From an uncultured Planctomycetia bacterium (GTDB lineage Bacteria; Omnitrophota; Gorgyraeia; 2-02-FULL-51-18): 64,000 bases of DNA. The notes beneath the pieces are model-generated. The model saw only the letters and a list, made by a program, of their open reading frames with translations. It did not search any database and had not been told where the DNA came from. The translations under genes were made by a program, and so were the position numbers. Shown here piece after piece: positions 1 to 16,015 of this stretch (its first letter is position 1; each line of letters begins with the position of its first letter). The stretch spans positions 62,925 through 126,924 of the forward strand of contig CAZSGP010000006.1 of NCBI GenBank assembly GCA_964606485.1. The letters are read 5' to 3'.

Positions 1-945
1 GAGCATTTTTAAATGATGGGATTCAAGAGGCGGTAAAATCGTCTGCTTAGAAACCGTGATAAATTTCTTAAAAACATAAGGCCGCGGCTGTTTGCCGTCG
101 ACGTTCGCAAACTCAAGTTCAAACTCAAATCGGTCGCCAGATCTGCTATCTTTTCCAAGGGATCGGCTCAAATCCGTATAAATGCGTTTGAACCAGGGTC
201 GCATGGCCACGCCGCAGACAAGACTCGTCATCGCGAAAATTCCTAAAGCGAAAGGATTATTATTTTTACTGCCTAAAACCGTGCGTTCAAAATCACCGCC
301 GGCCACTCGACCCACACTGGTGGACACATCATAAATAATGAGCCCTAAAAGCAGTAGCGCTCCAGAAAAAATGAATCCATAATCAAAAAACCGCATGAAA
401 CGGTCGGGAACCAACGCTCGAAATACTTTTTGGCCGTCCAAGGGTCCCAGTGGGAGCATGTTGGCGAGACCAAAAACTAAATTAATGTGCGCCACTGTTT
501 GAAAAATCCAGTAACCGGTGGCTAAGTATAGGCCTGCGAAAACCCCGTAAAGAATTAAATTCATGATAGGCCCGGCCAGCGCGATTTTGGCCAAGGCTAT
601 TTTATTTTCACCGTTTCCGGGATTAAAAAGCTTATTTTGAAAAACTGCAAAAAATAAAGTCGCGGGAACCCCTAAAAGTCCTGTGATGACAAGCGTCAGG
701 GCCGAAGCGCCGCTCATGAAACGCCACGGCTTCCATGAAATCTGACCGGCCATCCATGCAGAAACATCTCCCGCCTTGAGCGCCGCATAAGCGTGAGCCA
801 CTTCGTGCAGTACGATTGATTCTATGACCAGCCAAAACATTAGGACACCTTCAAGAAACCGAAGCGTCTCCACTTCCGCGAGTCGCGCACCGGCCATCGA
901 AAATTTCAGCTTTGATGCGGCGGGTTCGTCCAACATGTAGATCAC
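1..945 (-). other. M50 (site-2 protease)-like polytopic membrane domain at C-terminal end of giant ORF, continuing beyond window
   Basis: HExxH in a hydrophobic helix (IVLHEVAHAYA, 793-825) and NMLPLGPLDGQKVF (436-477) match the M50 HExxH / NxxPxxxLDGG motif pair, with hydrophobic helices around them. Confidence 0.65.
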
Positions 946-3900
946 GCTGTCCATGCGCTGAAGCATCGACACCGGAACGGACTCCGTGACCGGGCCCTGT
1001 AAACCACGAGCCACAATCTCCGCTTTTTTTTCGCCGTTAGCCATGAAAAAAATATTTTTGAACTCTGCGATATCCGCCATACCCATTGTGATCGCACGAG
1101 GCGCTTTGCGGATTTCCGGATAATCTTTTTCATTCGCAGCGATCGTAGACTCATTTAAATCGACGATCTGCATGGACTGGTTAAACCCGGAAAACCGCGG
1201 CGGCTCATTGAAAGCCAAGTGACCGTCGAGACCGACTCCTAAAATTCCAATATCCGCGCCGCCATTGTCCTTTAAATTTTTCATGTAACGCTCCAAGTGG
1301 CCCGGCACATTCCATTGGGAGCCGTCGATATAATGAATATTCGCTTCCGGAATCTTTACTCTCGAAAATAAATGCTTTCTTAAAAATGCTGCGAAGGAAC
1401 TCGGGTGACTGGGTGAAAGGCCCGCGTACTCATCAAGATGATAGGCCTGAACACGCGACCAGTCGATGTCTTGGCTAAATCGAGCCATATAATCCAACAT
1501 TTGTACCATGGTATTTCCGGTGGCAAAAACGATGTTTACACTTTTTCCAGATTTCTGGAGAGATTCGATTTTAGTAATGATCGCAATCGCCGCGGAAGAG
1601 GCAAATTTATGATCTTCCTCAACACGGATTAATTGTTTTGTGCGGCTGAGCGCAAGCTGAGAATCACCCGCTGAATTTTGAATCAAAATCTTTATTCTTT
1701 CCGATAAGTAACGAAGATAGGCGAGAAACTCCTTTTCGTCCGAAGGCTCGGTTATTCCCGCATCCGAATGGATCTCATCGATAAAATTTTTAAGTTCCGG
1801 CTCGGCTCTAAAAAATCGGTCGTACTTTTCTTCTAACGTCTGCTTAAACTCGCGAAAATCTTCTCTCCTATTCGCAAGGTTGGAATGGATAATTGCTAAG
1901 AAGCCTTTTTGATGCTCCTCAAGAATTCTTAGGAACATCGCTTCGGAGTCACGCGAAAAACTACCGGTCACCTTAATTTGAATTTCGTCTCCAAAAGCCC
2001 CATTTCCAGGAACAAGCTGAAAGTCCACACGGTAAAAATGACCGGCCAGCGCCATCGTGCGCGACACACCTGACCGACTCAGGCCTCGTGCCAACGCGTC
2101 AGAAACTTCGCGCAAATGGCCCGCGCCCACCACTTGGTAGGAGTATTCTCTGATTTCCTCTTTACGGGTTTTAGCAAAAAAACGAACGCGGCCGTTTGAC
2201 GGCGTGTCCTGGTAAAACCCGATTGAAAACCAGCGATTCTTCTTCGCGAAGCCTGCTTCAAGACGATCTCGAAACTCGTTTTTTATTCTTAATTCATCTT
2301 CGGCTCTTTGCAGAGGAGACCGAACAGCCGGATGGCCGTCAGGTCCCAAGCCGAATTCCCATTCGGAGATAGGATTACTGATCAGATGAGAGGGTTTTTC
2401 AGTTAACCGCGCTCCATTTGATTTAAATTTTTTCTCCAAATGGATGTAAGCAAAAGTTGCAGCAACACCCGCGGTGATGAGTTGTCCTGCGTACATTGCG
2501 CTGTCAGCAGCACTCAGCACCACGGGATCTCCTAAATGAATCCAGGAGAAGGTTCCCCCATAATTCCACACGTCAACCGCCGCCAATACCGCCGCCCAAA
2601 CGTAGAACCAGATGGCAAGATCAAGCGCGCTTTTAAGTTTTAAATACCCTTTCTCTTCGAGAACTAAACGGAGATAACCTGTCCCAATCGCCCATGCCAT
2701 TAGAAAGGCCGCACCCAGAATCCAGAACGGATCACGCGCGGCGTACACAATAAACGGAGGCGGATTGTGCAGAAGCTCGTGAGGCGTGACAAAAACCAGT
2801 GTTTTTTGATTTTCTTTGGATAAATTTTCATAGTAGGCCAGTCCGCGATCCGAAAAAACCTTTGGCCATATATAAAAAAATGGGGTGCTTGAAAAATAGA
2901 GACGCTCCATATAAGTATTCATCGGTACGCTTACTAAAATTATCAAAATCCGGATCATTTGACCAAGCGTTAGGTCATCCTCCGAAGAACCCGGTCTCAC
3001 CTCGACCTCGGTTTCTTGGGATTTCTGAACAAGCCGCGCGCCACGAGTCTCTCCAAAATCAATGCGCTCCCGCATGCGGTAAATCGTGCGGATAAGCTCA
3101 ATTCCTTGAGGGGAACGAAGTGTGTTCCCGATTCTTCCGTTTTGGCAGAGCTTTTTAATCACATCTTCTTCGTCTTCGTGGTCATTGCCTCTCCATTCTG
3201 CGTTAAGCAATTCCATCTTCGCAAGAATGCCCCTTAATAAACGCAGATCTCTGTGATTATTCTCTTTGGAAGCCAAACGCAGTTCTTCGTTAACGGTTTC
3301 CTCGGCCAGCCTAAAAATAGCCGTCATAGGAATCTTATTCCTGAAGCTTTTTATCTTTGCTTTCAATTTTGCTTTAAAATTGCGTTCGAGCCGGTGAATA
3401 AAAGCCTCTCTGCGGATTTCGGCTTCCTGGCTCTTTTGCCACTTTTTATAAAGAATATTTGCAATGCTTGCGGCAACAGCAAGCACCGCCAGCGTGCCCA
3501 AGGTAATACCTGAAAGCCGCGCGGCGGCAGGCAAAACCTCAAGCGCTTTGTCTTTTCTAAAACAAGCCAGGTACCACTCTGCGTTGTAGTGGCGAACTTC
3601 AGTATATTTTTCACTTGAGAAAAACGAGCGCTCGATTAAAAATTCTTTATCGGGCCTAAGACCCGGCAGCTCTTCGAACATGCCCGTTAAAACAAGGAAG
3701 CAAATTAAAGATCCGTTTTTCATTTGTAATCTTTTTTCTAGAAATTTACTTCTAAAATGAACGGCCTCGTCCCCCTCGGGTTCGGTGTAATAATAAAAAA
3801 CGAGATCCGCATCGCTCCAGGAAATATTAAACGCGTCCGTTTCGGGATAAAACTTAAAGTCGGGCTGTGCAATTTTTTTGGCCCGAGCATTCTCGAGCAG

Positions 3901-6900
3901 AGCTTCCGATTTTTTGGAGAGCATCTTAGAAATTTCAATAGAAGAGACCTTCATTCCAAAAACGTATTCTGCAAATATTCCTACCCGGAGATCTCCGGCG
4001 CCAAAATCAAGCAAGCGTTTATCTTTTAAGCACCCGTACCTCTTTTCAATTGCAAGAAACGACCGGTAAATATGCTCAAAATTTGCCATATCAAATAACG
4101 CCCCGCCCGAACCAAAGGGGCGATACTGATTTTGATATTCCTTATAAAATTTAATGACATCCTGTGCGCGCTTTGCTCGTTCCGTATCCGTATCGCTGAC
4201 ATTTAAAGAAAGCCTCGCCCCACCGGTTTCGGATTGAACTTTTTGAACGTACACGAGAAGCCTGCGGGCAATTCCGCTGGCTTCGGGGAATCCCATACGG
4301 ATAAAATGTTCCAGAAGCTGGATTAAATTATTTTCGGGAGTGCTTTGAGCACCCTTCACCCAAGTTTGAATCGCTATCACGGCTCGCCGAACTATGCCGG
4401 GATCAATCACTTCCTTAGCCAAGGAAACCCATACCTCCTTCACTTGATCGTCAAATAAATTGGGCTTTATAAGCAGTGCTTTTTGAAGTTCAGAGATAGC
4501 AGCGTCTCTTTCAGCGTCCGTTCCGAAAATGGCAGCCCTTAACAAGTTTGAGAAATTTATTTTATGGGCATCGGGCGCAGGCCCTTCCGCTTTAAGATTT
4601 TCAGCTATTTTCCAAATGCGCGCCCGCACAACCGTTTCGACCGGTTCATCAAAAATACGGTCACCCTCAACGCGGACTATTTTTCCTTCTCTGCAAAGTT
4701 TTTGACGGTTTACTTCCATGGCAACATTGAACTGATGCCACATATGGTCCCAAACCGCGCCGGCTTCTACGGAGGGATTCTGCCACCAGCGCTCATTTTC
4801 AGGAGTCTCAATGTTGTCCCACCACCAGGCCAGATCCTTGGCGGACTGCTCTAAACGAGCTTCGATATTTTGGCTAGGCCTGAAAACAGCCACGTCCATG
4901 GGAAGAAGCGATTGGTTCCGGTATTCATCGCGTTTAATTTCATTGTTTGCGACAGCTGCCAACGCAACCAGTTTTTCACCCACTTCAAGATTGACGCCGA
5001 AATGAAGGTTTTCAACTTTAGAAATCCGGTAACCCCCGGCAAAAAAATTGGAGGCGCGCGCCAAGATACGAAGCCCGATCATTTGCCGTGCCCAATTTTC
5101 ATCCATAACGCCGTTGAGTATTTTTTGAGCGTCTAACGACTCTTGACTAAAATTCCATCGCATCCGTTTTGTAATAGGTCCGCGGTCGATCGGTTCCAAA
5201 GCGGACGGCATCTGCCCCATCAAATGGGTGTCGCGCTTAAACAGCGAATCTAAATTCTTCTTTGAGGGCGACTCGTCGAATTTCTCATCCACTCGCGAGG
5301 GTTTCGCCGATAAAATCATTCGTGCGAGTGGCTCTTTCGCGTCGTTGATCAAGTCTATTCGCAAAAAGACGGTTCCGTCGGGCTGGGTTTTAACTAACTT
5401 CGTCCGGATTTTTAACGGCTGCAAATACAAGACCAGTCTGCTTCTATTTCCGTGAGGACGATTGGCTCGGAAATACAAAACTCGATCCGGATTAAAACCC
5501 GTCATCACGCGCTTCGCCTGGTTCACTAGCCGACTTAAGATCAGAAAATCATAAACGCGTTCTCCGGAAAGAAAATACCAGTAATAACCCTCATCAGATA
5601 GCCGTTGCGGCTCGCCTGACAACGAGAATAAATCCAGCATCCATTTCTCAAAACGGATCAGCTGTTCATCTAGCATCACACCACCGGAAAGCCGCGCGCC
5701 CCTCACAAAATCCACCACCACCTGATTCCATTCATCAAGATACTGAGGCAAATGCGAACGCAGCAGCGAGTGCTCCTGGCTTCCTTCGTCAATAATTTCA
5801 AGGGGGGTAGACATTGCCCGTGCATCTTCCCGCAGATTGTGAATGTCCACGAGCCGGTCGTGAGTGCTTGTCACGATGAGTTTTTTTGTGCCGTTTTTTC
5901 GCCGGACCGCGTTTGCCTTTTCGTGCATGTCAGACGGATAAGTCAAAATCGCGTGCAACTCTTCGAGCACATCGCGCGTCGACATGTTTTCGTAGTCCTG
6001 GCTAATCGCGTAGTGCAGCTCTTCCGGCACGCCGAGTTCCTTGAGCATTTTGAAAAAATATTTGCCTTGAGTAAAAGAACCCCAAAAGGGCGCTACAAAG
6101 AACGTCGCTGCAGCCGGCGCGTAAGACGCAAGCTGGGAAAACAGTCCCGAATACCTCTCAAGCGCTTTTTCTCTTAGCGCCACAACAGGCCAGGGTAAAC
6201 GTTCGGACACCGGCCACTTTAAAACAGTTAGCATCGGCTCAAGAATTTTTCGGACAGGCCCAAAATACGCTGACGCAGATTTCAGAAAATCTAAAATATT
6301 CCGGATCGCGTGATCCCTGTGTTTAAACGAAAAGGGATTGGAGCCGATCTCGACGGAAATTTTATCAATGACGTCCTGGTAGATTTCAGGCTGGCTAAAC
6401 AACGTGTCAATCAGCACATTTGCGTCCGAATGCCCCACCAGCACAATTGGCCGGTTGGGGTATTCTTTGGAAACCCATCGAATCGTGTGCGCAACGTTTC
6501 CAACGTAGTAATTCAAAATCTGTTCGGAACCCATTTTGCGAATGGCTAACGGCACGCGTCCCCGGTGGGGGGCCGCCACCGTCCAATCATCGGGAAAATT
6601 GGCTAATTGATTTTCCCAGGTGCCTCTGCCCACAAATCCGTGCACGAGCACGGCAAGTGGTGCTTGATTGGATGGCCCCTGACGTAAATCCACTTTAAAA
6701 CGGGTTTCAATGACTTGTCCCGCATGATCCTGAAACGGCCTTCCGTCCGATCCTGCCAGCGTCCGGGTTAATTCTACCTGCGGCCAGCGAAGTGCTTCTT
6801 TATCGACAAAAAAATCAACACGGGTTGGCTCGGGGTGTTTCCATAAAAGCCGCGCAGGCGCTTGAGTGAGCCAGTACTGCTTACGCTCAGGCTCCGAGCG

Positions 6901-9900
6901 TAAATCTTTGAGCACCCGATAAAGAGGCTTTCGCTTATGCCGGCCCGACATCATCACCATCGCGTGTTTCGAGTCAAAAAAAGCTTCCGGCGTCAGCGAC
7001 ATGAGATTTCCAGTCACCGCATACCCGGGGTCATACCGCTTTTTCAACAGCTCGCTTCCGGGGAAAATCGCGCCCATATTGGCTTGGCTACCGATACCCC
7101 AAATCGTGAGATCAAACCGGTTGCCGTTTTCGGCTAGCACTTCACGGCGTTTTATTTCGTAAGAAGCGACAAGCTCCTTAAATTTTTGAGCGTCCACGTC
7201 CACCCAATTCCCATCGTAAAAGCTAAAAAATTTCGGCTGGTCGATCGCGCGGTCTTTGCCCTTAATGCTTAAAAAATTAAAACAGGACCGGACCATCGCC
7301 TCATTGGCACCCGGCTCATCCGCCCCGGGTCCGCGCTCTTCCCCTAGGAAAAATACGATTCTCTGCATTTCTCCGGGCTTAAATCGAGTGTAGTATTCTT
7401 TTTTGGTGAGGAGCTTGTAAAATTTCACCGGGGTATCGCCTCCGGCAAGCGCTACAAAAAACTTGGCGTCTTTTTTGCTTCTTAGCTTTTGAATGGCAAG
7501 CTCTATAAACCGGTCCGCCGCTTTTTTACTCAATTCCTCATCGTTGAGAGCGGACGTGTCCACCCGGAACCGAGGTGTCGCGGCAATTCCTTCGCGCTGT
7601 CTTAGAAACTGATTAAATTCCTCTTCCCGCAGGGCGCGCGTCCGCGCAGGCGTCCACTCGCCGGCATCAAATCGCTCAAAAATTAAATCCGGACTGGCCT
7701 TCGTTCCGTATTCCACAATGCGGTCAAACTCGCTCCATTGATTTTTTGGGTGCAGGCGTTTTGGGTAGCCAAGCGCAAATCCCACAAACCGCTCGAGCTC
7801 CGCGTCGTCAAAGAAACCGTTTAAGTCCGGCGGATAAACCGGCTCTGCGATCAAACTCCATTTTTCATTTTTAATTTGCTCTTCAAATACTTTGAGCGCT
7901 GTCAAAAATGCCCGCCGGTTATGGGGCGGCGTGGTGACAAGTGAAACGGCCGTGTGATCAAGCTTGTAATCCGATACCGCCTGGGCAATGAGATGACGGC
8001 TCATCTTCAAATTTTCAACCGTGTTGGGCGTTGGCGTGGTGTCGCGGTAAATAACGGGCTTTCCTTGAAATTCGGTGGGCATATTAAAAGTATGCGTCAG
8101 AATAAATTCGATCAACTCCGACTCGGTCGACTGTTCATTTTTTAAGAGCCGCTTAAAAATAACGCGGTCGCGGCTTTTAAAAGAATAGGCATAATTTCTT
8201 AGCATTAAATCTTTCAAGTCCTGTGTCGCCCGGCCAATGCCGCCTGTGATCACTATCGGAATCACGTCCCCCGCTTCGAATCGCTTATTCCACATTTGGG
8301 CGAATGCTTCAAACGCTTTGAGATCTTGGTGTCCGAGCAGCGCGTAAACCGTGGGCTTGCCGCTAAAACCCGCTGTCTGCTCTGTTTTAGACAGTTCGTC
8401 AATTAGCGGCTGGATGGCTCCAATCATCCGGTTCCGGGAATCAGAGAGCACATTGGCCGCGAGGCGCGCGCCGCTTTGAATCGGATTGGGAGAGCCACGA
8501 TTAAACCTTAACTGTTGGAAATGAATATAATCCCGTGTCGTTTCTACATCCTGAGTCTTGAGCAGAACTTTTAATACCCGCGTAAACATTCCATGTCCAT
8601 AAACAAAAACGGTTTTGCCCGGATAGCGCTGGTTTATTTCGTCGATAAATTTCCGCACTCTCACCATAAACTCAGGAAAACTTTCGCCGTTTCGCGGCGC
8701 AATGAGGGCGCTGTTATTTTTATACGCCTGCGCCATTTTTTGCTGTGCGGGATCAAGCTCATCTATTTTTTTGCCGCCCCAGTCGCCGAAATTAATTTCT
8801 TTAGCGCGCATCTCCAATTCCACATCGATCGCCCGCTTCAAGCCGAGGTGATAAAGACGCGGGATTTGAAATGAAGCCGTTTCTCTTGCCCGGAAAAGCG
8901 GGCTCGTCAAAAACACATATCCTTTTCCCGGATCCCCATCACTCAGGAGACGCTGGTATTCTTGCCACAACTCCTGAGCTCCACGCCAGGCCTGGGATTT
9001 ACCTTTGTCGTCTAAACGAGCAAGCGGACCCTCGTTCTGACCCTGGAACACCTCCATAGAATTTCCGTAAGTATTGCCGTGCGGAATCATCACAAGATCA
9101 CATTTCAAAACCGGAGGCTCGTAGCCGGCTTTGTATCGGATATGACCCTCTTGATCAATGACTTCAAAACCAAGATCTGAAAGCATTTTTTTGCCTCTCA
9201 ATCGGCTTCTTAAGTCGTCATAAAATAAATATTTAAAAATTAAATTTGCCCAGGCGGCAAGACGCGCACCTGCTTGTTGGGACAATTTCTCGACATCTTT
9301 TTTTAGTTCCTTAATTTCCCTTTCAAAGTCCAGCATAAGGATGTTAAAAAGATCCAAATTTTTTCGGCTAATCGCCTGAGCGACGTGATTCACTAGCGCT
9401 GCCGACTTGGACTTTAATGTATTGATCAGATCAGCGCGTGTTTTACGATTAAGCGATGGATCTGAGAGTTTAATTCTGGCATGCGTCGCAAAGTCGGTTT
9501 GCGCATCAATTAAGCGATTATAAAGAGGCTGAAAATAAACCTGAGCCTCTATGGTTTCATTGAGTGCTCGCTCGCGGGCCAATTCGAAGAGCATTGGAAT
9601 AACTTTGTCTTTCGAATCAAACTCGCTCCCCTCAATCGTCGACAGGTATTGCTGAAGCTCTCCAGGAACACGCTCAGTCAGAAAGACGTTTCCCTTTATA
9701 TGATCCGCGAAATGAAAAACGCCGGGTTTACCGCGGCGCCCGGCACGCCCTTCGAGATGCAGCGCTGTGAGCAGTGACTTGCTGTAATGGGTGCTCAAAA
9801 CCACTAAGCCCGCAACCGATATTTTTTTCCCGCGGAATTCCGCTTCCACGGGCTTGTAAAGTTTAGGGTCCAATTTAATTTCGGCGCCGCGGCTAGCCAC

Positions 9901-12900
9901 CTGAGCTGTAATCGTGATGCTGAAAGAATCTCCGATTCTATTCCAATTAAGCGCATCGCTCACTTCATCACGTCCATTAATAACCCGAATCGGTTGGAGC
10001 GGCTGCGTGCCGCCCTTCAAAAAGGGTTGCCGCTCATTCTCGGCCTCGAGCGCATCGCGGTACATTTCGGCTTCTTCCGGCGAACGGGTATTGAGCAAAA
10101 TAGGACGACCGGTCTCATAAAACACGCGGATTGCATCCACAAAATGTGCGATCTTTTCTTTTTCGTTTAAAAAATATTCCTCCGGAATGACCGTTCGATT
10201 GTTGGGGTACTTGGGCTTAACTTGCCGAACCGTCGCGCCATAAAGCGCTTCTAAAGCCGCCGCGCGCTTGGAATCTAAAACTCCTATGACTGCGCTGAAC
10301 TCAAGTGTGTTCCTGTAAAAATAATGCGGCGTTAAGAGCTCGCGCGCGACCGCTTCCCCCATAACCTTCTTTCCTTCTTTAATTTCTAAAAAGGGTTGAA
10401 AAAAGCGGATAACACGGTGCTCCTGCCGATCGCCAGTAGATTCGTTTCTGAGCGTAATTTTTTGATCCCATTTACTCGAATGCTTGGCCCGGCTTGTCGA
10501 AAAATATTGTTCACCTTCCTTGTAAAATAATCGCGCTTGTATAGCAATGTCTAAAAGCTCGCGCGGAAACTCGGGGTCTGAATAAAACTTCTGCAAAACG
10601 TCTCTTTTGGACAACTCAGCCAGCTGAGCGCGCCTAGTTTCATCGAGCTCAATGTCAAGTTTTCTCCGAAATTGGCCCTCCTCTTCCACCCAAATGACTT
10701 TTACCTTTCCCTCATCTAAAAGCCGAGTCGCCAATTCATTTACAGCGATATAGATGCCTTTTAAGTCCTCATCCATCTCTTCCGTGGGGTCCGCAAAAAC
10801 GCGAGGCTCATACGCTTCGTCCCAGAGAGGTTCTTCTGCCTCATCTAAAAACACCCACTTTTTTTTGTCAGAACTTTGACTCTTTCCAAAATATTTTAGA
10901 GAGAATCTGTCGATCATATGCCTAAACATAAATTGATCGTAGGTCCCGTGAATAAAATCGGCCTTTCGAGCTAGTTCGGCGCCATTCGTCTCCGTTAAGG
11001 AGGCCGTTTTAAAACCTAGACGATTTAAGATGGCCTCGGCAACCGCTGAATTTCTGGATGCCAGCGGGATATTAAAATCATGTATTTCAACTCGGTAACC
11101 AAAAAGCATTTTTAAATACGCCGCTAGAACCAGCGAAAGTGACTTTCCTTCGGACATTCGCATGGTCACGAGCGCTCGATTCTCTAAGAGAAGTAAAGCC
11201 GCTTCAATTTGTTTCTCGTTAGGAAGACTATTCGGATCGGTGTTTTGATCTCCGATAAACGTCCGTATGGAATCATAATCCAAGCTCTTATCACTCGCCG
11301 TCTTCGCTGCGGCAATTGAAAAAATGGCAATAGCCCAACCTATAAACTCCGGATTTGTTTTTAATGTGGGGTCTGCTTTAAATTTTTCCTGAACCAATGG
11401 ATAAAGTGCTTCGATGGATTCTGGGCCCATATGAGTAAGAGTTTGAATAAATTTTGTTTTATACCTACAAACATCTTCTATGAATTTTTTTTCTTTGCGC
11501 GACCGCAGAGCCGCCTGAGTCTTCCTTAAGAAGCCTTCCGCATCCGATAAGGAATCAATCTCATAAAGCTTTAATTTTTTGTATAAAGTCCTTTGGTCTA
11601 TTCCAAGCCGAATGGCAGCAGCTCCTCTGAAGTCGCCTGTTGAGTATAAAGCCCCGATAATCACCATTTTTTCAAGCTCACGCCACTGCAACACTTCTTG
11701 CTTCGCCATCCACAAATAAGCCGATGAATAATTGACTTCAATTCGCTCACGGGCCGACGCCTGGGAATCCACGCCTTCGACTCGAATCTCGTTGGACACT
11801 CTCTGGGAATCCAACCCCGTACTCAGGGCGGTTCCGCGTATAGATCCGCAATTAGCGTACGCGTTCAAAATAAGCATTTGTTTAACGCGCCTTAAGTTGA
11901 AATCAATATTTTCTGGAAAATTTTCAAGCGGAGCTTCTGGCTTCTCATCAGGAATGATGGACCTTAGATTTTTTAAATCCAGCTTTCCTTTTTCAAAATC
12001 AATTTTATTTTGGAGTGTCTTTAAAAAATCGGAATGCTGTGCGTTCTTCGTTGCCAAAGCTGTCAGGGAATCCATAGTAGGAGCTTGGGCGTCGGTAACC
12101 GCAACTATTTCAATCGTTCCCATTTTTTCTTCAGCTGCGGCAAGTCGCGCGCCGTCAGATCTTATAATCGCAATATTGTGCAAAATTTCCCGAGCGCGTT
12201 TTCTAATTTTTTGAGTATAAATCGTGTCATCTGTTAACCCGCTGATGTCTTGACGAACGGCTTCGGTCAGCTCGTCCATCTGATCTTTTGAAAACAACAA
12301 AGGGTTTGTTAAAAGCATCTGATAGGCCGCTTCCGTCAAATTCCACCGACGGCTCGTATCTCCCATGCTCATCCCTTCGGCCAGATAACGCGATGCCAAG
12401 ACCGCATTGAATATTGAAGTTAATTCTTTTTCCGCCCACTTTTTTTGTGACAAGGGAATAATAATATCGTTGATAAATTTATCCATTTGAAATCCGGATT
12501 GGGATAAATCCCCTTCAGCGTAAGAGCGCTGAATGTTTCTCTTCGTTTTAATATGCCCAAAAGCCACAAAGAGTTTCCCCACTAGATAAAAATTAGTCGG
12601 ATCCGAAAAATCGGTTTCTTTGATGAGAAGTGACGCCACATTCAGCATGGCATACGATGCGCTGAGTGCCAGCGACTCTCTTTTCAGAGGTTCCTCATGA
12701 AGACCCGACCAGTGAATAAAAAACTGATTCCAAATCTCCCTCTTCTGGCTTGTGCTGGCATTTTCCAGCAAGTCATGAAGCGCATCAAAAAAATCAATTC
12801 GAACCTTCTGAATATCGCTGTCGGAGTTATCGTATTTTTTTAAATAGTCGTTCAAAATAATATCGATTTTGGTCGACGCATCGGTTTTCAATCCAACGGT

Positions 12901-14892
12901 TTTTTTATATTTTTCAAACGGGGACTCTCCGAAGCCCCAAGACTTCTTAAGCATTCTTGCCGCATCCTGGGGAGCGACGCCCCCGCAAGCGGCTAACAAC
13001 AGGGATAGTGCTAAAGCGGAGACACGGTTTATATAGACAGGGAGTCGCGCGCCTTCGCTCGGCGACCGGCTCCGGTCCTTGCGCTTCATATGCTCGATAT
13101 CCTTGAGAATGTTTTGAATCGTGGTTTTTACCGGTGAAGCGTAAAGGCCAAAAAACACCACCATCCCCAGAAGCTGACAAAGAGATTGCTCGGCGCGCTC
13201 CAAAACTTTCTCATCCGCCGCCAGTCCGAGTTTCGAGTTTTCACAGACTTTCACGATATCGGGATCAGACTGTACGATCTTGAGAATATATTCGGTCCGC
13301 TCTTTTTGAATAGCTCTCCATTCCTCTCTGTAGGCTCTCATTTTGCTTCGAACCCAATCCATCCAACCGAGCCTCGCGCCGCGCGACGCCTTCGTATTGT
13401 CGGTAACGACAGAGAAGATAACTTTCAACTCACTTTCCAAAGATTCTTTAACACTCAACCGGCCGCCCTGCGCCGGATACAACACCAAATTTGCTGCCGG
13501 CTGCACATTCCACAAAGCGCTCGGCGCCTGGATTTTTAAAGCATCGAAACGGGCAATGATTGGAGCAGCATTTTTAGGCGGAAGTTGAGATAGGAGTAAA
13601 TTTTCATACTTACGGACATTGGTTTCCGCAAGCACGCGCGGTTGGATAATCTCGCAATCGACCTCTTTGTCCGCAAAAAGCCGTTTCAAATGCTCCGAGT
13701 GAAAACCACCGGCGACGAGAATCGCTTTCGTTTCATTTTCAGATTTCATTTTTGAAAGCGTATTTTTTACAAACACGTGGTCGCGTTTTAAGGTGAGCGC
13801 ATAAAATGTTTTGGCCTTTTTAACGAATTTTTCGTAGCGAGGCTCAAGGTACACAGCGTTCTCAAAACCCTTGTGAAGACCAGAAATCATGCCGTTCAAA
13901 TCGCCGGATATTTTTTTCATCGAAAATTGCTTGGGGTTTTCTCGGATAGCCTTATAGTCGCCTGGCTCTAAATTGAGACGGGTTAGTTTTTGGAGTGTGT
14001 GGAGAGTTTCTCCGATCTCAGACAACCGTCTTTCGTCTGACGTCTGGACAATATTTTCAAAAATCCGATCTTCAAGCAGTGATTTTTCGCGAAGCAGCTC
14101 ATCCAAATCGAGTTTCCGCACGCGTTTAAGGTAATTTTTAGACGCCGTATTATTTTTCTTTAAAACTTTTTCAAGATGCGTCAGCCTGGAAAGCACTTGG
14201 ATTTGTGACAAATCTCCAAATGAAATACCTAGAGACTTCGCCTCCCGAACAAGATACGAAAAATAGTCAGCTGAAAGCATTTGTCCGGAATCAAATTGCG
14301 TTTTATTCGTATCGAATCGAAGCAGTCTTTCATTAAAAATCTTGGCCTTAAGGAAGCTGGCCGTTCGCTCCACCCGCTCTAGATACGCTTCGACGAAATC
14401 GCGCTCTAGTTTTAAATCACGATAAAGTCCGAGCCCTTCGAAATAAAGCGCTTTATCCTCCACTCCCCAAAGCTTGAAAGGCTTGTCCGAAATAAGGTCC
14501 AAGTAGTCCGGCCCTTGAATGGTCCCTTTCTGTAAAAAACTGTCCGCAATCTGCTTCGCTTTTCGACGATCGCCGATCGCTTTTGGTCTCAGATAAGACA
14601 GTGAGTCATCACCGGTTCCCGCTTCTAAAAATACAATCTTAATTTTTTCTTGAGTGATAAGCTCATCAATGGTTTTGGCGATATTTTTCTGCGCGGAAAG
14701 ATTCAAGTGCGCGTCTTGAATGATGTAGATTTTTTTAGTGAAGGGTTGCTTCGCTTGGTGAAAAAAAGAAAGCGGCTCACTACCGGCGGCAAATGCAAGA
14801 TCTTGCGCCAAAAAAGAAATAACGAGTGCAAATGATAGGCACTTTAAAAAGCTTGGGGTTCTGCTTTTTAAAAGATTAAATTTATAAAACAA
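1..14892 (-). CDS. Giant multidomain protein, at least 4,960 aa, 3' end beyond window start. Probable TTG start near 14892 followed by a signal peptide (FYKFNLLKSRTPSFLKCLSFALVISFLAQDLAFA). Domain modules are listed as separate features.
   Basis: Reverse-strand frame (codon first bases at coordinates divisible by 3) is open from the stop at 14947-14949 down to coordinate 1. This was checked codon by codon at 1-960, 5690-5710, 9250-9285, 9710-9755, 13030-13060 and 14830-14950. The ORF track shows only short antisense ORFs in this 14.9 kb, consistent with one ORF lacking an in-window stop. Multiple specific family motifs are present in frame. Confidence 0.8.
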   Translation of the reverse strand, partial: MFYKFNLLKSRTPSFLKCLSFALVISFLAQDLAFAAGSEPLSFFHQAKQPFTKKIYIIQDAHLNLSAQKNIAKTIDELITQEKIKIVFLEAGTGDDSLSYLRPKAIGDRRKAKQIADSFLQKGTIQGPDYLDLISDKPFKLWGVEDKALYFEGLGLYRDLKLERDFVEAYLERVERTASFLKAKIFNERLLRFDTNKTQFDSGQMLSADYFSYLVREAKSLGISFGDLSQIQVLSRLTHLEKVLKKNNTASKNYLKRVRKLDLDELLREKSLLEDRIFENIVQTSDERRLSEIGETLHTLQKLTRLNLEPGDYKAIRENPKQFSMKKISGDLNGMISGLHKGFENAVYLEPRYEKFVKKAKTFYALTLKRDHVFVKNTLSKMKSENETKAILVAGGFHSEHLKRLFADKEVDCEIIQPRVLAETNVRKYENLLLSQLPPKNAAPIIARFDALKIQAPSALWNVQPAANLVLYPAQGGRLSVKESLESELKVIFSVVTDNTKASRGARLGWMDWVRSKMRAYREEWRAIQKERTEYILKIVQSDPDIVKVCENSKLGLAADEKVLERAEQSLCQLLGMVVFFGLYASPVKTTIQNILKDIEHMKRKDRSRSPSEGARLPVYINRVSALALSLLLAACGGVAPQDAARMLKKSWGFGESPFEKYKKTVGLKTDASTKIDIILNDYLKKYDNSDSDIQKVRIDFFDALHDLLENASTSQKREIWNQFFIHWSGLHEEPLKRESLALSASYAMLNVASLLIKETDFSDPTNFYLVGKLFVAFGHIKTKRNIQRSYAEGDLSQSGFQMDKFINDIIIPLSQKKWAEKELTSIFNAVLASRYLAEGMSMGDTSRRWNLTEAAYQMLLTNPLLFSKDQMDELTEAVRQDISGLTDDTIYTQKIRKRAREILHNIAIIRSDGARLAAAEEKMGTIEIVAVTDAQAPTMDSLTALATKNAQHSDFLKTLQNKIDFEKGKLDLKNLRSIIPDEKPEAPLENFPENIDFNLRRVKQMLILNAYANCGSIRGTALSTGLDSQRVSNEIRVEGVDSQASARERIEVNYSSAYLWMAKQEVLQWRELEKMVIIGALYSTGDFRGAAAIRLGIDQRTLYKKLKLYEIDSLSDAEGFLRKTQAALRSRKEKKFIEDVCRYKTKFIQTLTHMGPESIEALYPLVQEKFKADPTLKTNPEFIGWAIAIFSIAAAKTASDKSLDYDSIRTFIGDQNTDPNSLPNEKQIEAALLLLENRALVTMRMSEGKSLSLVLAAYLKMLFGYRVEIHDFNIPLASRNSAVAEAILNRLGFKTASLTETNGAELARKADFIHGTYDQFMFRHMIDRFSLKYFGKSQSSDKKKWVFLDEAEEPLWDEAYEPRVFADPTEEMDEDLKGIYIAVNELATRLLDEGKVKVIWVEEEGQFRRKLDIELDETRRAQLAELSKRDVLQKFYSDPEFPRELLDIAIQARLFYKEGEQYFSTSRAKHSSKWDQKITLRNESTGDRQEHRVIRFFQPFLEIKEGKKVMGEAVARELLTPHYFYRNTLEFSAVIGVLDSKRAAALEALYGATVRQVKPKYPNNRTVIPEEYFLNEKEKIAHFVDAIRVFYETGRPILLNTRSPEEAEMYRDALEAENERQPFLKGGTQPLQPIRVINGRDEVSDALNWNRIGDSFSITITAQVASRGAEIKLDPKLYKPVEAEFRGKKISVAGLVVLSTHYSKSLLTALHLEGRAGRRGKPGVFHFADHIKGNVFLTERVPGELQQYLSTIEGSEFDSKDKVIPMLFELARERALNETIEAQVYFQPLYNRLIDAQTDFATHARIKLSDPSLNRKTRADLINTLKSKSAALVNHVAQAISRKNLDLFNILMLDFEREIKELKKDVEKLSQQAGARLAAWANLIFKYLFYDDLRSRLRGKKMLSDLGFEVIDQEGHIRYKAGYEPPVLKCDLVMIPHGNTYGNSMEVFQGQNEGPLARLDDKGKSQAWRGAQELWQEYQRLLSDGDPGKGYVFLTSPLFRARETASFQIPRLYHLGLKRAIDVELEMRAKEINFGDWGGKKIDELDPAQQKMAQAYKNNSALIAPRNGESFPEFMVRVRKFIDEINQRYPGKTVFVYGHGMFTRVLKVLLKTQDVETTRDYIHFQQLRFNRGSPNPIQSGARLAANVLSDSRNRMIGAIQPLIDELSKTEQTAGFSGKPTVYALLGHQDLKAFEAFAQMWNKRFEAGDVIPIVITGGIGRATQDLKDLMLRNYAYSFKSRDRVIFKRLLKNEQSTESELIEFILTHTFNMPTEFQGKPVIYRDTTPTPNTVENLKMSRHLIAQAVSDYKLDHTAVSLVTTPPHNRRAFLTALKVFEEQIKNEKWSLIAEPVYPPDLNGFFDDAELERFVGFALGYPKRLHPKNQWSEFDRIVEYGTKASPDLIFERFDAGEWTPARTRALREEEFNQFLRQREGIAATPRFRVDTSALNDEELSKKAADRFIELAIQKLRSKKDAKFFVALAGGDTPVKFYKLLTKKEYYTRFKPGEMQRIVFFLGEERGPGADEPGANEAMVRSCFNFLSIKGKDRAIDQPKFFSFYDGNWVDVDAQKFKELVASYEIKRREVLAENGNRFDLTIWGIGSQANMGAIFPGSELLKKRYDPGYAVTGNLMSLTPEAFFDSKHAMVMMSGRHKRKPLYRVLKDLRSEPERKQYWLTQAPARLLWKHPEPTRVDFFVDKEALRWPQVELTRTLAGSDGRPFQDHAGQVIETRFKVDLRQGPSNQAPLAVLVHGFVGRGTWENQLANFPDDWTVAAPHRGRVPLAIRKMGSEQILNYYVGNVAHTIRWVSKEYPNRPIVLVGHSDANVLIDTLFSQPEIYQDVIDKISVEIGSNPFSFKHRDHAIRNILDFLKSASAYFGPVRKILEPMLTVLKWPVSERLPWPVVALREKALERYSGLFSQLASYAPAAATFFVAPFWGSFTQGKYFFKMLKELGVPEELHYAISQDYENMSTRDVLEELHAILTYPSDMHEKANAVRRKNGTKKLIVTSTHDRLVDIHNLREDARAMSTPLEIIDEGSQEHSLLRSHLPQYLDEWNQVVVDFVRGARLSGGVMLDEQLIRFEKWMLDLFSLSGEPQRLSDEGYYWYFLSGERVYDFLILSRLVNQAKRVMTGFNPDRVLYFRANRPHGNRSRLVLYLQPLKIRTKLVKTQPDGTVFLRIDLINDAKEPLARMILSAKPSRVDEKFDESPSKKNLDSLFKRDTHLMGQMPSALEPIDRGPITKRMRWNFSQESLDAQKILNGVMDENWARQMIGLRILARASNFFAGGYRISKVENLHFGVNLEVGEKLVALAAVANNEIKRDEYRNQSLLPMDVAVFRPSQNIEARLEQSAKDLAWWWDNIETPENERWWQNPSVEAGAVWDHMWHQFNVAMEVNRQKLCREGKIVRVEGDRIFDEPVETVVRARIWKIAENLKAEGPAPDAHKINFSNLLRAAIFGTDAERDAAISELQKALLIKPNLFDDQVKEVWVSLAKEVIDPGIVRRAVIAIQTWVKGAQSTPENNLIQLLEHFIRMGFPEASGIARRLLVYVQKVQSETGGARLSLNVSDTDTERAKRAQDVIKFYKEYQNQYRPFGSGGALFDMANFEHIYRSFLAIEKRYGCLKDKRLLDFGAGDLRVGIFAEYVFGMKVSSIEISKMLSKKSEALLENARAKKIAQPDFKFYPETDAFNISWSDADLVFYYYTEPEGDEAVHFRSKFLEKRLQMKNGSLICFLVLTGMFEELPGLRPDKEFLIERSFFSSEKYTEVRHYNAEWYLACFRKDKALEVLPAAARLSGITLGTLAVLAVAASIANILYKKWQKSQEAEIRREAFIHRLERNFKAKLKAKIKSFRNKIPMTAIFRLAEETVNEELRLASKENNHRDLRLLRGILAKMELLNAEWRGNDHEDEEDVIKKLCQNGRIGNTLRSPQGIELIRTIYRMRERIDFGETRGARLVQKSQETEVEVRPGSSEDDLTLGQMIRILIILVSVPMNTYMERLYFSSTPFFYIWPKVFSDRGLAYYENLSKENQKTLVFVTPHELLHNPPPFIVYAARDPFWILGAAFLMAWAIGTGYLRLVLEEKGYLKLKSALDLAIWFYVWAAVLAAVDVWNYGGTFSWIHLGDPVVLSAADSAMYAGQLITAGVAATFAYIHLEKKFKSNGARLTEKPSHLISNPISEWEFGLGPDGHPAVRSPLQRAEDELRIKNEFRDRLEAGFAKKNRWFSIGFYQDTPSNGRVRFFAKTRKEEIREYSYQVVGAGHLREVSDALARGLSRSGVSRTMALAGHFYRVDFQLVPGNGAFGDEIQIKVTGSFSRDSEAMFLRILEEHQKGFLAIIHSNLANRREDFREFKQTLEEKYDRFFRAEPELKNFIDEIHSDAGITEPSDEKEFLAYLRYLSERIKILIQNSAGDSQLALSRTKQLIRVEEDHKFASSAAIAIITKIESLQKSGKSVNIVFATGNTMVQMLDYMARFSQDIDWSRVQAYHLDEYAGLSPSHPSSFAAFLRKHLFSRVKIPEANIHYIDGSQWNVPGHLERYMKNLKDNGGADIGILGVGLDGHLAFNEPPRFSGFNQSMQIVDLNESTIAANEKDYPEIRKAPRAITMGMADIAEFKNIFFMANGEKKAEIVARGLQGPVTESVPVSMLQRMDSVIYMLDEPAASKLKFSMAGARLAEVETLRFLEGVLMFWLVIESIVLHEVAHAYAALKAGDVSAWMAGQISWKPWRFMSGASALTLVITGLLGVPATLFFAVFQNKLFNPGNGENKIALAKIALAGPIMNLILYGVFAGLYLATGYWIFQTVAHINLVFGLANMLPLGPLDGQKVFRALVPDRFMRFFDYGFIFSGALLLLGLIIYDVSTSVGRVAGGDFERTVLGSKNNNPFALGIFAMTSLVCGVAMRPWFKRIYTDLSRSLGKDSRSGDRFEFELEFANVDGKQPRPYVFKKFITVSKQTILPPLESHHLKML
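950..1720 (-). other. Glucosamine-6-phosphate deaminase/isomerase (NagB)-like domain
   Basis: IVFATGNTMVQML ... HLDEYAGL ... GADIGILGVGLDGHLAFNEPP (verified at 1201-1260) ... APRAITMGM ... DEPAASKL. This is a close match to NagB family motifs (GsTp, DEY, GiGenGHiaFNEP, AiTmG, D.aAa.L). Confidence 0.7.
1750..2350 (-). other. Second TraB/GumN-type GxxH region (YQVVGAGHLREVSDALARGL)
   Basis: VVGAGHL matches the TraB/GumN C-terminal signature. Confidence 0.35.
3700..4100 (-). other. Class I SAM-dependent methyltransferase-like domain
   Basis: Motif I KRLLDFGAGDLRVGIFAEY, followed by acidic and hydrophobic motifs typical of the Rossmann MTase fold. Confidence 0.4.
6150..6660 (-). other. alpha/beta-hydrolase-like domain
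   Basis: VLVHGFVGRGTWENQ (HG oxyanion motif) and IVLVGHSDANV (nucleophile-elbow-like GHSxA) within about 80 residues. Confidence 0.4.
6950..7500 (-). other. 6-phosphogluconolactonase/NagB-fold domain (first copy)
   Basis: FFVALAGGDTPVKFYKLL and FFLGEERGPGADEPGANEAMVR resemble Pgl/DevB motifs (alSGGsTP ... gDER..p.d..SN). Confidence 0.5.
8570..9100 (-). other. Histidine-phosphatase (phosphoglycerate-mutase) fold-like domain with variant first motif (IPHGNTYGN instead of RHG)
   Basis: LVMIPHGNTYGNS ... GESFPEFMVRV ... TVFVYGHGMFTRVL pattern matches the RHGx..N / GES / HGG layout of the family, but the catalytic Arg position is Pro. Confidence 0.35.
9650..11250 (-). other. SecA-like DEAD-box motor domain embedded in giant ORF
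   Basis: In-frame motifs: VTMRMSEGKSLSLVLAAYLKMLFGYRVEIHDFNIPLASRNSA (compare SecA [37 protein letters not shown]); KADFIHGTYDQFMFRHMIDRF (SecA DITYGTNNEFGFDYLRDNM); ASRGAEIKL (SecA AGRGTDIxL); LHLEGRAGRRGKPGVFHF (SecA motif VI LRGRSGRQGDPGSSRFY), verified at 9711-9753. Confidence 0.6.
13500..14800 (-). other. TraB/GumN/TIKI-like N-terminal domain shared with the two other giant ORFs (motifs IYIIQDAH and ILVAGGFHSEHLKRLF)
   Basis: Alignable by eye with the N-termini of the 44746..50247 ORF (VWLIEDIH; VLVVGGFHTAGLVNDL) and the 58437..64000 ORF (FIVGGYHAPSLQKLF). The [IV]VG[GA]xH..L pattern resembles the C-terminal GxxH motif of the TraB/GumN family. Confidence 0.45.
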
Positions 14893-15073
14893 AATAAATT
14901 TCACCCAATATTTTAAATTAATCTGAACATAAAATTTAACAACGGGTTAAAGTAAAAAGTGCTCGGAAAAGTATGCCTAATCTGCTCAGTAAAATCAAAT
15001 TCGGTTAAAAAAAATTTTTAATCAGAAGTAAGTGAATTTAAGCACAAGTGACTCATTCAAAAAAAATATTGGC

Positions 15074-16015
15074 TTAAATCGATAAAAGCTTGTTTTGAAT
15101 GGCTTTTGTGAGAGCTTCGTTCGCGGGCACCGGAACTCCGAATGCTTGGCCATAAGCACAAATCGCGCCGTTAAGCGAGTTGATTTCCGTTTTCCGGCGC
15201 TGGGTGAGATCTCTTAGCATGGATGGAAAATGCTTGGCCGTCGGCGGAATTAATTTTTCGGTGAGAAGTTTAAAATATTCTTGAGGAGACTCCGGTGACA
15301 GCGAGATGCTCTTTCGCTTAGCCACGTCATAGCACTCTTCCACAATTTTTCGCATCTGGTTGAGCCTCTCGGGACTTTCAAGCATCGCGCCGTAAGGCTT
15401 TTCCAAAAGTGTGCACGGCGCGTTTAGCGCGCAGTTGTAAATGGCCTTTGCCCAGATGACTTCCATTATTTTTTGTGTAGGCACGCAGGGAATCTTCGCC
15501 TGCGATAAAAGATGCGCCACCTCCACTGCCGCACGGGAAGTCTGCGCGGCGTGAGGCGCTCCAATCTCGATTGGCGCCGCTGTTCCGGTAATTTCAACGT
15601 CCCCCGGTTTTAGCTCTATCCCCGTAATAATTCTTCCAGCCAGAAACTGCTCGGGTCGAATGCTTTTTAAAATGGTCTCGATGTTGCCAAGCCCATTCTG
15701 CAGGGAAATCAACACGGTCTTCTCGTTCATGAATGGCTTTAATTCTAAAACGGCGCGCTCGGTGTCGTAGGATTTAACAGTAAGAAAAATATAATCGAAC
15801 TCGGGATTTAATTTTTGAAGTTCGCTGGCAGAAACATAAGTTTCGAGAGCCTTGATGCGGTACTCGCCCCAAATCCCCCGGATGACGAGGCCGTTTTTTT
15901 GAATGGCGTTCATGTGGTCCGGGCGACCCACTAAGGAAACGTCATGACCGAGACGTGTGAGAAATCCGCCGATTACACTTCCGACGGCGCCCGCGCCAAA
16001 GATCAGGACTTTCAT
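15074..16015 (-). CDS. panE: 2-dehydropantoate 2-reductase (ketopantoate reductase, PanE/ApbA family)
   Basis: N-terminal MKVLIFGAGAVGSVIGG Rossmann motif, LQNGLGN motif, length 313 aa typical of family. Confidence 0.75.
   Translation of the reverse strand: MKVLIFGAGAVGSVIGGFLTRLGHDVSLVGRPDHMNAIQKNGLVIRGIWGEYRIKALETYVSASELQKLNPEFDYIFLTVKSYDTERAVLELKPFMNEKTVLISLQNGLGNIETILKSIRPEQFLAGRIITGIELKPGDVEITGTAAPIEIGAPHAAQTSRAAVEVAHLLSQAKIPCVPTQKIMEVIWAKAIYNCALNAPCTLLEKPYGAMLESPERLNQMRKIVEECYDVAKRKSISLSPESPQEYFKLLTEKLIPPTAKHFPSMLRDLTQRRKTEINSLNGAICAYGQAFGVPVPANEALTKAIQNKLLSI

Follow-up and report, generated by a model that had tools for sequence, protein, structure and literature searches.

The 64,000-nucleotide stretch of DNA analysed here, hereafter the window, covers positions 62,925 to 126,924 of contig CAZSGP010000006.1 (assembly GCA_964606485.1, from an uncultured bacterium labelled Planctomycetia), and its left end lies inside a giant open reading frame (ORF) on the minus strand. 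The encoded protein opens with a secreted-type N-terminal domain (N-domain) and continues as a series of unrelated modules separated by a short peptide motif, [G/A]-A-R-[L/M] followed by a small residue. From the pattern of these sites we consider the motif to be probably a proteolytic processing site (probability about 0.6), which would make the gene product a cellular polyprotein.

A single gene of 5,725 codons

A stop-free frame on the minus strand spans positions 1..14946 (4,982 codons in one frame of the window translation). Gene calling on a Logan contig places the start at a GTG codon at 14904 and gives a full length of 5,725 amino acids (aa), such that aa 1-4968 are encoded within the window (1..14904) and the C-terminal 757 aa beyond coordinate 1. 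A previous reading made from the letters of the window (the sequence-only reading) had described a single reverse-strand ORF with no in-window stop, and had given this as the reason why its list of ORFs was empty there. Both statements proved correct, the ORF having been omitted only because it runs off the window edge. The extension past coordinate 1 that it proposed as a check was supplied by a profile search, which recovered the full-length protein (P0029), with residues 2-4968 equal to the window translation. An independent Logan assembly is 100% identical to the window over 10,982 bp, a contig of another sample is 99.2% identical overall with the first 576 nt of the ORF identical, and no in-frame stop or frameshift that might split the ORF into ordinary genes was found. 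Because the complete protein matches the window translation and the independent assemblies agree, the giant ORF is genuine, and is a real chromosomal gene of 5,725 codons.

A short motif recurs between unrelated modules

In the in-window part of the frame the tetrapeptide GARL occurs ten times and AARL once, where chance would give 0.18 occurrences of GARL and none of 2,000 shuffles yielded more than three; GARL is the sole strongly enriched 4-mer. The full protein holds 15 sites, 11 of them in the window. The codons used for the motif vary synonymously (GGC/GGT/GGG/GGA for glycine, CGA/CGC/CGG/CGT/AGG/AGA for arginine and CTC/CTT/TTA for leucine), which implies selection on the peptide and not on the DNA, and the flanks of the sites are polar and mutually unrelated. 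A DNA-level repeat or recombination site is ruled out, since all synonymous codons are present and the flanks are unrelated.

The sites lie between modules of very different kinds, all of them on the minus strand (in what follows the hyphen separates each site from the residue after it). Site 1 (GARL-G, aa 509-512, 13369..13380) is found in the tail after the N-domain, which is predicted to be disordered. Module 1 (aa 513-621, 109 aa, 13042..13368) has one hydrophobic helix and no family match, and ends in site 2 (GARL-P, 13042..13053). At the start of module 2 (aa 622-921, 12142..13041) a lipoprotein-type signal peptide of 20 aa, PVYINRVSALALSLLLAA-C, follows the motif without a gap, and site 3 (GARL-A, 12142..12153) closes the module. 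Module 3 (aa 922-1882, 9259..12141), ending in site 4 (GARL-A, 9259..9270), combines by Pfam a Fis-type helix-turn-helix (HTH; 11566..11682) with a divergent SecA-like ATPase, in which SecA_DEAD (10333..11226) and P-loop_SecA (9841..10188) both exceed the Pfam cut-offs. Both nucleotide-binding domains with Walker A/B are represented, and the sequences SEGKS and LDEAEE are present. The C-terminal scaffold/wing of SecA is missing, and the NCBIfam SecA model is covered at positions 88-567 of 814, with 104 bits against a cut-off of 814; module 3 is thus predicted to be SecA-like, not SecA. A histidine phosphatase (His_Phos_1, 8524..9093, Pfam E=6.9e-23) occupies module 4 (aa 1883-2148, 8461..9258), which ends in site 5 (GARL-A, 8461..8472); two stand-alone His_Phos_1 genes also occur in the window, at 25834..26331 and 57255..57881. 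Module 5 (aa 2149-3072, 5689..8460) contains a weak DUF218/YdcF-like match, a 6-phosphogluconolactonase (6PGL)-like domain (6892..7542) and a weak alpha/beta hydrolase match before site 6 (GARL-S, 5689..5700).

The second half of the in-window protein continues in the same manner. Module 6 (aa 3073-3565, 493 aa, 4210..5688) has no family match and ends in site 7 (GARL-S, 4210..4221), and module 7 (aa 3566-3797, 3514..4209) is weakly class-I methyltransferase-like (DREV, E=0.04; motif LLDFGAGD) and ends in site 8 (AARL-S, 3514..3525). Module 8 (aa 3798-3958, 3031..3513) opens with a transmembrane (TM) anchor directly after the motif, followed by a charged helical region and site 9 (GARL-V, 3031..3042). 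Module 9 (aa 3959-4167, 2404..3030), which ends in site 10 (GARL-T, 2404..2415), has 3-4 TM helices and no Pfam match. It includes an HExxH-type sequence, HELLH, at aa 4042-4046 (chance expectation about 0.16 per protein), and could be a second membrane metalloprotease or carry HELLH by chance. In module 10 (aa 4168-4675, 880..2403) a 257-aa N-part of no recognised kind precedes a NagB-like domain (955..1611; Pfam 2e-27; NCBIfam nagB 4e-47, model positions 3-249 of 259), the last residue of which is number 501 of the module's 508, so that it stops about 7 aa ahead of site 11 (GARL-A, 880..891). This domain clearly meets the Pfam superfamily threshold and scores 160.7 bits, below the NCBIfam equivalog cut-off of 236.9, so that module 10 is predicted to hold a NagB-like glucosamine-6-phosphate deaminase domain of putative specificity. 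It is one of two Glucosamine_iso Pfam domains in the giant ORF, the other being the 6PGL-like one. Module 11 (aa 4676-5174, truncated at the edge of the window, 1..879) is M50/site-2-protease-like, with HEVAH at 793..807 and the Asp of LDG at 436..438; it scores 33.3 bits when scanned alone (Pfam cut-off 27.2) and 26.4 bits within the whole protein, and HExxH and NxxPxxPLDG are invariant in its alignment with stand-alone M50 proteins.

Profile searches therefore found most of the domains named in the sequence-only reading, which had seen a histidine phosphatase, 6PGL-like and NagB-like domains (all supported by Pfam) and an M50 membrane domain with its catalytic motifs intact. The SecA-like DEAD motor that it listed is present as the motor part, far below the equivalog cut-offs, and its alpha/beta hydrolase and class-I methyltransferase are seen as weak matches only.

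The sites as probable protein boundaries

No Pfam or NCBIfam domain spans a motif site, and every site of the giant ORF falls between recognisable modules. The N-termini of stand-alone M50 homologues (207-243 aa) coincide with the GARL position when aligned with module 11. Module 2 and both large cargo modules of a paralogue, ORF C (below), open, with nothing between them and the motif, with a positively charged segment that leads into a hydrophobic core and then a lipobox Cys (residues 20-24), and in other family members Sec-type signal peptides or signal anchors are found at the same place. Signal peptides of normal length (20-30 aa) start 1-6 residues after the motif at 8/126 sites, compared with 2.1%, a threefold enrichment (p=0.005). 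A gene for the prolipoprotein diacylglyceryl transferase Lgt lies in the window at 29518..30654. Short spacer segments of 5-60 aa between adjacent sites are frequent. Since module 2 is of lipoprotein type and module 3 is an HTH/SecA-like ATPase, with no TM helix between them, a single continuous chain cannot satisfy the topology. A strict core and an always-small next residue in an unconserved, disordered context looks like the typical signature of a protease site.

A TIKI-like domain at the N-terminus

The giant protein begins with a Sec-type signal peptide (aa ~1-40, 14785..14904, minus strand) that has a K/R-rich n-region, a hydrophobic core of ~12 aa and the c-region QDLAFA-A. This leader layout, Q[DE]x[SA][FWY]A-[NA]P, is kept across 64 family members, in agreement with the signal peptide proposed from the sequence earlier. 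Export of a folded N-domain by the Tat pathway was considered because it would have removed the conflict of compartments discussed below, and is ruled out: an RRxFL-like motif occurs in only 3/64 leaders, which look Sec-type.

The core of the N-domain (aa 55-445, 13570..14742, minus strand) is predicted to adopt an alpha/beta fold whose core is a parallel beta-sheet, a fold of the TIKI/TraB/EreA/ChaN superfamily, with a helical insert of ~240 aa. It has no match among curated families (none in Pfam at E<=1, none in NCBIfam at E<=0.01), so the TraB/GumN-like domain of the sequence-only reading stands as regards the fold and finds no counterpart in either profile collection. The candidate catalytic residues are D64 (14713..14715), H66 (14707..14709), E94 (14623..14625) and H402 (13699..13701). 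D64-x-H66, E94 and GGFH402 are invariant in the family and are located at the C-terminal ends of parallel beta-strands in the predicted structure; E149 is also invariant. Some members of the TIKI superfamily, RRSP among them, are site-specific endopeptidases that use a 2His/2Glu site (PMC6254334). The spacing of 28 residues between the His and Glu of the N-domain is the same as between H3902 and E3930 of RRSP (PMC6254334), with Asp as the first acid, in a comparison of residue positions. Site 1 lies in a predicted disordered tail (pLDDT <50), and in 17/20 family members examined the first site is 70-110 residues past the last conserved motif of the N-domain.

A large family with variable cargo

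A word-indexed search with the N-domain returned eight relatives, the single source-named one being labelled Omnitrophota, and a scan of one genome per species located 40 N-domain loci, nearly all in metagenome-assembled genomes (MAGs) of that phylum. An exhaustive profile search recovered 9,229 representatives of clusters formed at 50% identity, and 5,590 of these reached E<=1e-30; the longest among the best 150 family members is 7,011 aa. These thousands of relatives apparently belong to the Omnitrophota, and none was found in IMG/VR viral contigs. Viral origin is ruled out by this result and by the housekeeping chromosomal context described below.

The motif follows the N-domain. In the real coding frames of the window it is restricted to three N-domain ORFs, and across the window and the 40 fetched loci it has a density of 1.26 per 1,000 aa in N-domain ORFs versus 0.16 in other frames, about an eightfold difference; all complete motif-rich ORFs in this set start with the N-domain. 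The residue after the motif is small at 126/126 sites of 19 proteins (A 90, S 22, T 5, V 4, G 4, P 1) and at 604/610 sites of a set of 152 representatives. In that set (432,366 residues) 594 occurrences of GAR[LM][ASTGV] stand against an expectation of 8.2, and no 5-mer is more frequent than GARLA, which outranks even the most conserved motifs of the N-domain itself. Lineage variants include AARLA, GARMA and AARMA. Among the 118 proteins that reach 1,500 aa or more, 75 carry three sites or more. In a closer clade the N-domain ORFs carry many sites (10, 12, 7, 10 and 9, for example), and the top enriched 4-mer is [GA]AR[LM] or ARLA. Ten loci (L001, L004, L008, L010, L011, L012, L014, L016, L021 and L023) show a modest preference for the motif codons GGC-GCG-CGG-TTG, with CGG at 39/82 versus a background of 0.20. 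The window's own ORFs are free of this bias. Shared descent of the sites and an effect at the level of the mRNA are both possibilities for its origin.

The ends of the proteins are conserved as well. An Ala-Ala or Ser-Ala terminus, the former resembling ssrA, is present in 92/118 long family members, as part of a shared helix-like C-terminal element of ~28 aa, LPxxxx(h)x(h)xx(h)(h)Q-GAR[LM]A-xKMxxQAA, (h) standing for a hydrophobic residue; an intact last site stands 5-12 residues before the end in 31/92 proteins, and a cut there would free a tail of that length. The giant protein ends in ASRLASQMADRAA (aa 5713-5725, beyond coordinate 1). The variable cargo thus lies between elements that are conserved at both termini.

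The cargo itself is seldom shared. Among 161 segments between sites BLAST detected homology in only 11 pairs, and the homologous alignments often begin or end at the motif. Cargo is non-homologous even at the syntenic locus next to an apbA/panE-like gene, which points to a fast turnover. Most of the sequence of the relatives has no Pfam match; in 23 of them the recognisable part consists mostly of enzymes and regulators that are normally separate cytoplasmic proteins, some of them oligomeric. These include enzymes of central metabolism (isocitrate lyase at 5e-108, malate synthase, hexokinase, PEP carboxykinase, fructose-1,6-bisphosphatase, 4-alpha-glucanotransferase and adenylate kinase), of biosynthesis and repair (DHDPS and PCMT) and the regulators CsrA and response regulators. 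Beyond the N-domain no domain is common to these 23 scanned polyproteins, and no protease family is common to their cargo. Nor was a dedicated protease gene found beside the polyproteins in the window, or a conserved one in the flanking ORFs of the 40 loci. SecA_DEAD occurs in 1/13 relatives scanned and was not detected at E<=1e-5 in 10 more.

Two paralogues of the giant gene lie in the window, both on the minus strand. ORF C (44746..50247, 1,833 aa) has a signal peptide and an N-domain, GARL sites at 48682..48693, 46807..46818 and 45331..45342, and the C-terminal sequence LAASA, its C-terminal element being encoded at 44749..44790. Its cargo comprises a HEAT-repeat module and an OEP/TolC-like module, each opening with a lipoprotein-type signal directly after the motif; the OEP-like module has no homologue by sequence in the PDB or the databases searched. 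ORF D (58437..63998, more than 1,853 aa), the N-domain of which lies past the right end of the window, has GARL at 63666..63677, 63564..63575 and 62373..62384 and AARL at 61299..61310, 60771..60782 and 58467..58478. Its cargo includes HTH_3 (XRE-type HTH) and Response_reg domains, and it ends in AARLAERHVLASA, with the C-terminal element at 58440..58478.

Genomic setting

The genes around the giant ORF are of normal size and of bacterial-chromosome type: pstSCAB-phoU, phoBR, tmk, ppx, queC, fur, znuA, MTHFR, ferritin, dsbD and rlmN. Scans for tRNAs and Rfam families returned no match in the window. Directly upstream of the giant ORF is an apbA/panE-like gene (15074..16015, minus strand), and in at least 7-8 other Omnitrophota genomes the polyprotein gene is likewise directly downstream of such a gene (in L001 at 1190..2194, for example), with phoU, pst, phoBR, ppx and tmk nearby. 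As to the host phylum, apparently the Omnitrophota, relatives of the N-domain are found almost only on Omnitrophota MAG contigs, some of them loosely labelled Planctomycetia, and the apbA/pho neighbourhood is shared with these MAGs. Genes of the Omnitrophota type also occur on contigs labelled Eisenbacteria, Saccharibacteria or 'uncultured Planctomycetia' (L001/L007, DATJEK010000131.1; L017; many CA* contigs); such labels probably reflect loose or wrong bin taxonomy.

Other genes in the window are unusual in their own ways. The Lgt mentioned above is fused to phosphatidylserine decarboxylase in a single gene (29518..30654, plus strand), and two thymidylate-kinase paralogues adjoin with a slight overlap (23452..24150 and 24104..24832, minus strand). 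A further long ORF of 1,797 aa (32222..37615, minus strand) has an N-terminal two-partner secretion (TPS) domain and a C-terminal beta-propeller, with neither the junction motif nor the N-domain, and not every long ORF in the window is therefore of the polyprotein type. Two ORFs of ordinary size, 39929..41194 and 50252..50635 (minus strand; 421 and 127 aa), have no Pfam match.

Discussion

The observations are consistent with a scheme in which a single message would be translated into one chain comprising a secreted TIKI-family N-domain and about 14 unrelated cargo proteins: soluble enzymes of cytoplasmic type, DNA-binding and ATPase modules, a lipoprotein and membrane proteins. The chain would be cut at [G/A]-A-R-[L/M]-(A/S/T/G/V), most likely after the Leu/Met, and each product would start with a small, stabilising residue. 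Cleavage at this position is favoured because the always-small next residue fits a P1' preference, and because cuts before Leu or Arg would give destabilising N-termini. Under the bacterial N-end rule small N-terminal residues are stabilising, and Leu and Arg destabilising. The placement of signal peptides right after sites suggests that cutting precedes export, on the cytoplasmic side and presumably during or soon after translation. Freed enzymes would then stay in the cytoplasm, and pieces exposing a signal peptide or lipobox would be exported via the Sec and lipoprotein (Lgt) pathways. The position of the cut within the motif, the compartment and the enzyme are all inferred.

The best candidate for the enzyme is the N-domain with its D-x-H / E / GGxH set, since it alone is present throughout these proteins, has a TIKI fold with invariant residues at strand ends and belongs to a superfamily with site-specific endopeptidases; we nevertheless assign it a protease function only tentatively. 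Cleavage of Wnt3a by Tiki between Leu and Ala is a parallel that we do not use as evidence. The most complete version of the scheme, in which the Omnitrophota routinely express genes as chromosomal polyproteins cut at [GA]AR[LM]-[AS], between the Leu/Met and the Ala/Ser, by a new TIKI-family endopeptidase that is itself the first module, is possible rather than probable.

Several observations weigh against this scheme. The N-domain has a conserved Sec-type signal peptide and would be expected outside the cytoplasm, at odds with cutting on the cytoplasmic side, and the TIKI superfamily also includes esterases and haem binders. The AF2 prediction left the tail with the first site disordered, and did not dock it into the N-domain. 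The three domains of module 5 are not separated by sites, and some domain boundaries therefore lack one. No site at all is present in 15/118 long family members, and a distant clade (L025-L040, for example L031 9680..15541) has the N-domain in proteins of 950-2,450 aa that lack the motif; the N-domain and the motif are thus not strictly coupled. Members of this clade have a conserved N-part of ~800 aa and a conserved C-terminal domain ending in WKxAQDEVLRAL, and may represent the ancestral, cargo-free form. The conflict of compartments may be avoided if the N-domain acts before it is exported, if the cutting is extracytoplasmic, or if there is a separate cytoplasmic protease and the N-domain is an ancestral first gene.

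The last of these ways out is itself a variant of the best explanation, in which a cytoplasmic protease acting in trans makes the cuts and cargo has been inserted between an ancestral secreted first gene, the N-domain, and the conserved C-terminal tail. It would account for the signal peptide on the N-domain, for the distant clade with N-domain and conserved C-terminal domain but neither motif nor variable cargo, and for the C-terminal element with the last motif copy so close to its end. However, no candidate protease is conserved near the loci or common to the cargo, and the motif is restricted to ORFs that start with the N-domain; on balance we think it doubtful. Export of the whole chain, led by its N-terminal signal peptide, as an effector in the manner of the MARTX toxins would place the cuts outside the cell or in a prey or host, where an extracytoplasmic TIKI-like domain would release cargo that reprogrammes the recipient. 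The extracytoplasmic destination of the N-domain would then present no difficulty, but no secretion-system or pore-forming repeats were found, and it is implausible that Sec could thread a chain of 5,700 residues made up of foldable enzymes. Moreover, the cargo includes proteins for the producer's own envelope (lipoproteins, the TolC-like OEP module, M50), and ATP- and NAD-dependent enzymes of housekeeping type dominate, making this a quite improbable explanation.

A different possibility is that the protein is a single uncleaved giant anchored in the membrane, with GARLA as a linker or docking motif, for a chaperone or scaffold or as a translational pause. Published analyses treat the giant proteins of the Omnitrophota as membrane-anchored chains with a signal peptide and TM helices (bioRxiv 10.64898/2026.06.07.730766), and the window protein has a signal peptide and several TM helices of its own. 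Module 5 holds several enzymes in one segment, and the case for cleavage is an indirect one, drawn from sequence. Nonetheless an uncleaved chain would set a lipoprotein-type module beside an ATP-dependent HTH/SecA-like one with no TM helix between them, it does not explain why signal peptides are placed as at free N-termini, and CsrA and oligomeric enzymes of central metabolism strung as beads on a chain of 4-7k aa are hard to square with their function. A strict four-residue core followed by an always-small residue in disordered, unconserved surroundings is, furthermore, typical of a protease site, and we regard the uncleaved giant as unlikely. Finally, an assembly artefact, or consecutive pseudogenes that lack stops only through sequencing error, would be suggested by the unusual length only, and is refuted by the identical independent assembly and the near-identical second sample, the thousands of homologues with the same architecture, the intact catalytic motifs of the M50, NagB-like and SecA-like modules, and the normal neighbouring genes with their ordinary stops.

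Cleavage at the motif thus remains the explanation that we prefer. The sequence-only reading had concluded, arguing that a single topology could not accommodate these modules, that the ORF encodes either a processed chain or a very unusual machine. Its first alternative is partly supported, by strong indirect evidence from the sequence: the junction motif, the signal peptides that follow it and the starts of the M50 homologues, cleavage being inferred. As to the second, the SecA-like and M50 modules that it singled out are two of many interchangeable cargo modules and not the core of a machine, SecA_DEAD being rare among relatives. Nor is the gene unique: its family within the Omnitrophota is very large, and giant ORFs of this phylum that combine several enzymes and include SecA-like domains have already been described.

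If the scheme is correct, cells would have an equivalent of the way in which viruses process polyproteins: each of thousands of genes would be translated into a chain holding as many unrelated proteins as an operon might encode, and the cargo at a fixed locus would be exchanged rapidly. Given the more than 9,000 representatives of clusters at 50% identity, such a bacterial polyprotein system would be widespread. It would also bring a new site-specific protease and recognition site, of possible use in fuse-and-cleave expression. The motif predicts exact neo-N- and C-termini, allows the chain to be split in silico for the prediction of structure and topology, and nominates a protease with named residues. 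Should the motif prove to be uncleaved, models of these proteins would still have to account for so strongly selected a signature.

Comparison with known systems

Compared with the TIKI/TraB-PrgY/EreA/ChaN/RRSP superfamily, the N-domain shares the fold and may share the His/acid set, and differs in having Asp for the first Glu, a helical insert of ~240 aa and no profile match. The viral polyproteins of picorna-, poty- and flavivirus type resemble the window protein in that one product yields many unrelated mature proteins through a short conserved site with a small prime-side residue, with short spacers between neighbouring sites likewise. Their protease is encoded in the chain, and the flaviviruses combine internal signal sequences with cytosolic cuts. 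The window gene differs in being cellular and chromosomal, in a housekeeping neighbourhood, with metabolic and not replicative cargo and a candidate protease from another superfamily.

In the MARTX toxins swappable cargo is held between conserved ends and released by inter-module cuts of a built-in cysteine protease (PMC6315884). The likeness to the window protein is one of working principle only. RTX repeats, the C80 cysteine protease domain and a type I secretion system context gave no Pfam match in the giant ORF or in ORFs C and D, the cargo resembles the cell's own enzymes and envelope proteins, and processing would probably take place in the producer. The cysteine protease domain of MARTX toxins cuts after Leu and before a small residue, a parallel to GARL-A that we do not use as evidence.

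The closest comparison is with the giant ORFs of the Omnitrophota themselves, in which unrelated enzymes are tiled together with divergent SecA_DEAD domains and many TM helices, and for which cleavage has been suspected (West-Roberts et al. 2023, bioRxiv 10.1101/2023.11.21.568195). A 2026 catalogue recognises a 'multi-enzyme metabolic' architectural class with a signal peptide plus TM topology, and reads the giants as single membrane-anchored chains (bioRxiv 10.64898/2026.06.07.730766). The window protein shares with them the apparent phylum, unrelated enzymes, methyltransferases, response regulators, TM helices, a divergent SecA_DEAD without scaffold/wing and an N-terminal signal peptide. At 5,725 aa it is shorter than the proteins of at least 10,000 aa (2026) or at least 30,000 aa (2023) considered there. 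Both papers propose C39 or S8 peptidase domains and state the cleavage points to be unknown (10.1101/2023.11.21.568195; 10.64898/2026.06.07.730766). Neither domain has a match in the giant ORF or in 23 relatives, which have instead a TIKI-like N-domain and a defined junction motif. TIKI, TraB, linkers and the junction motif are not mentioned in either paper; a search for GARL or GARLA together with polyprotein returned nothing relevant in the searchable literature, the matches being surnames. Multi-enzyme giant ORFs of the Omnitrophota are therefore already published, and the junction motif and the N-domain are absent from the searchable literature. Where that literature leaves open whether these are single proteins or are cut, the motif makes the question directly testable and, if cleaved, would for the first time give the phylum's 'giant genes' concrete points of cleavage.

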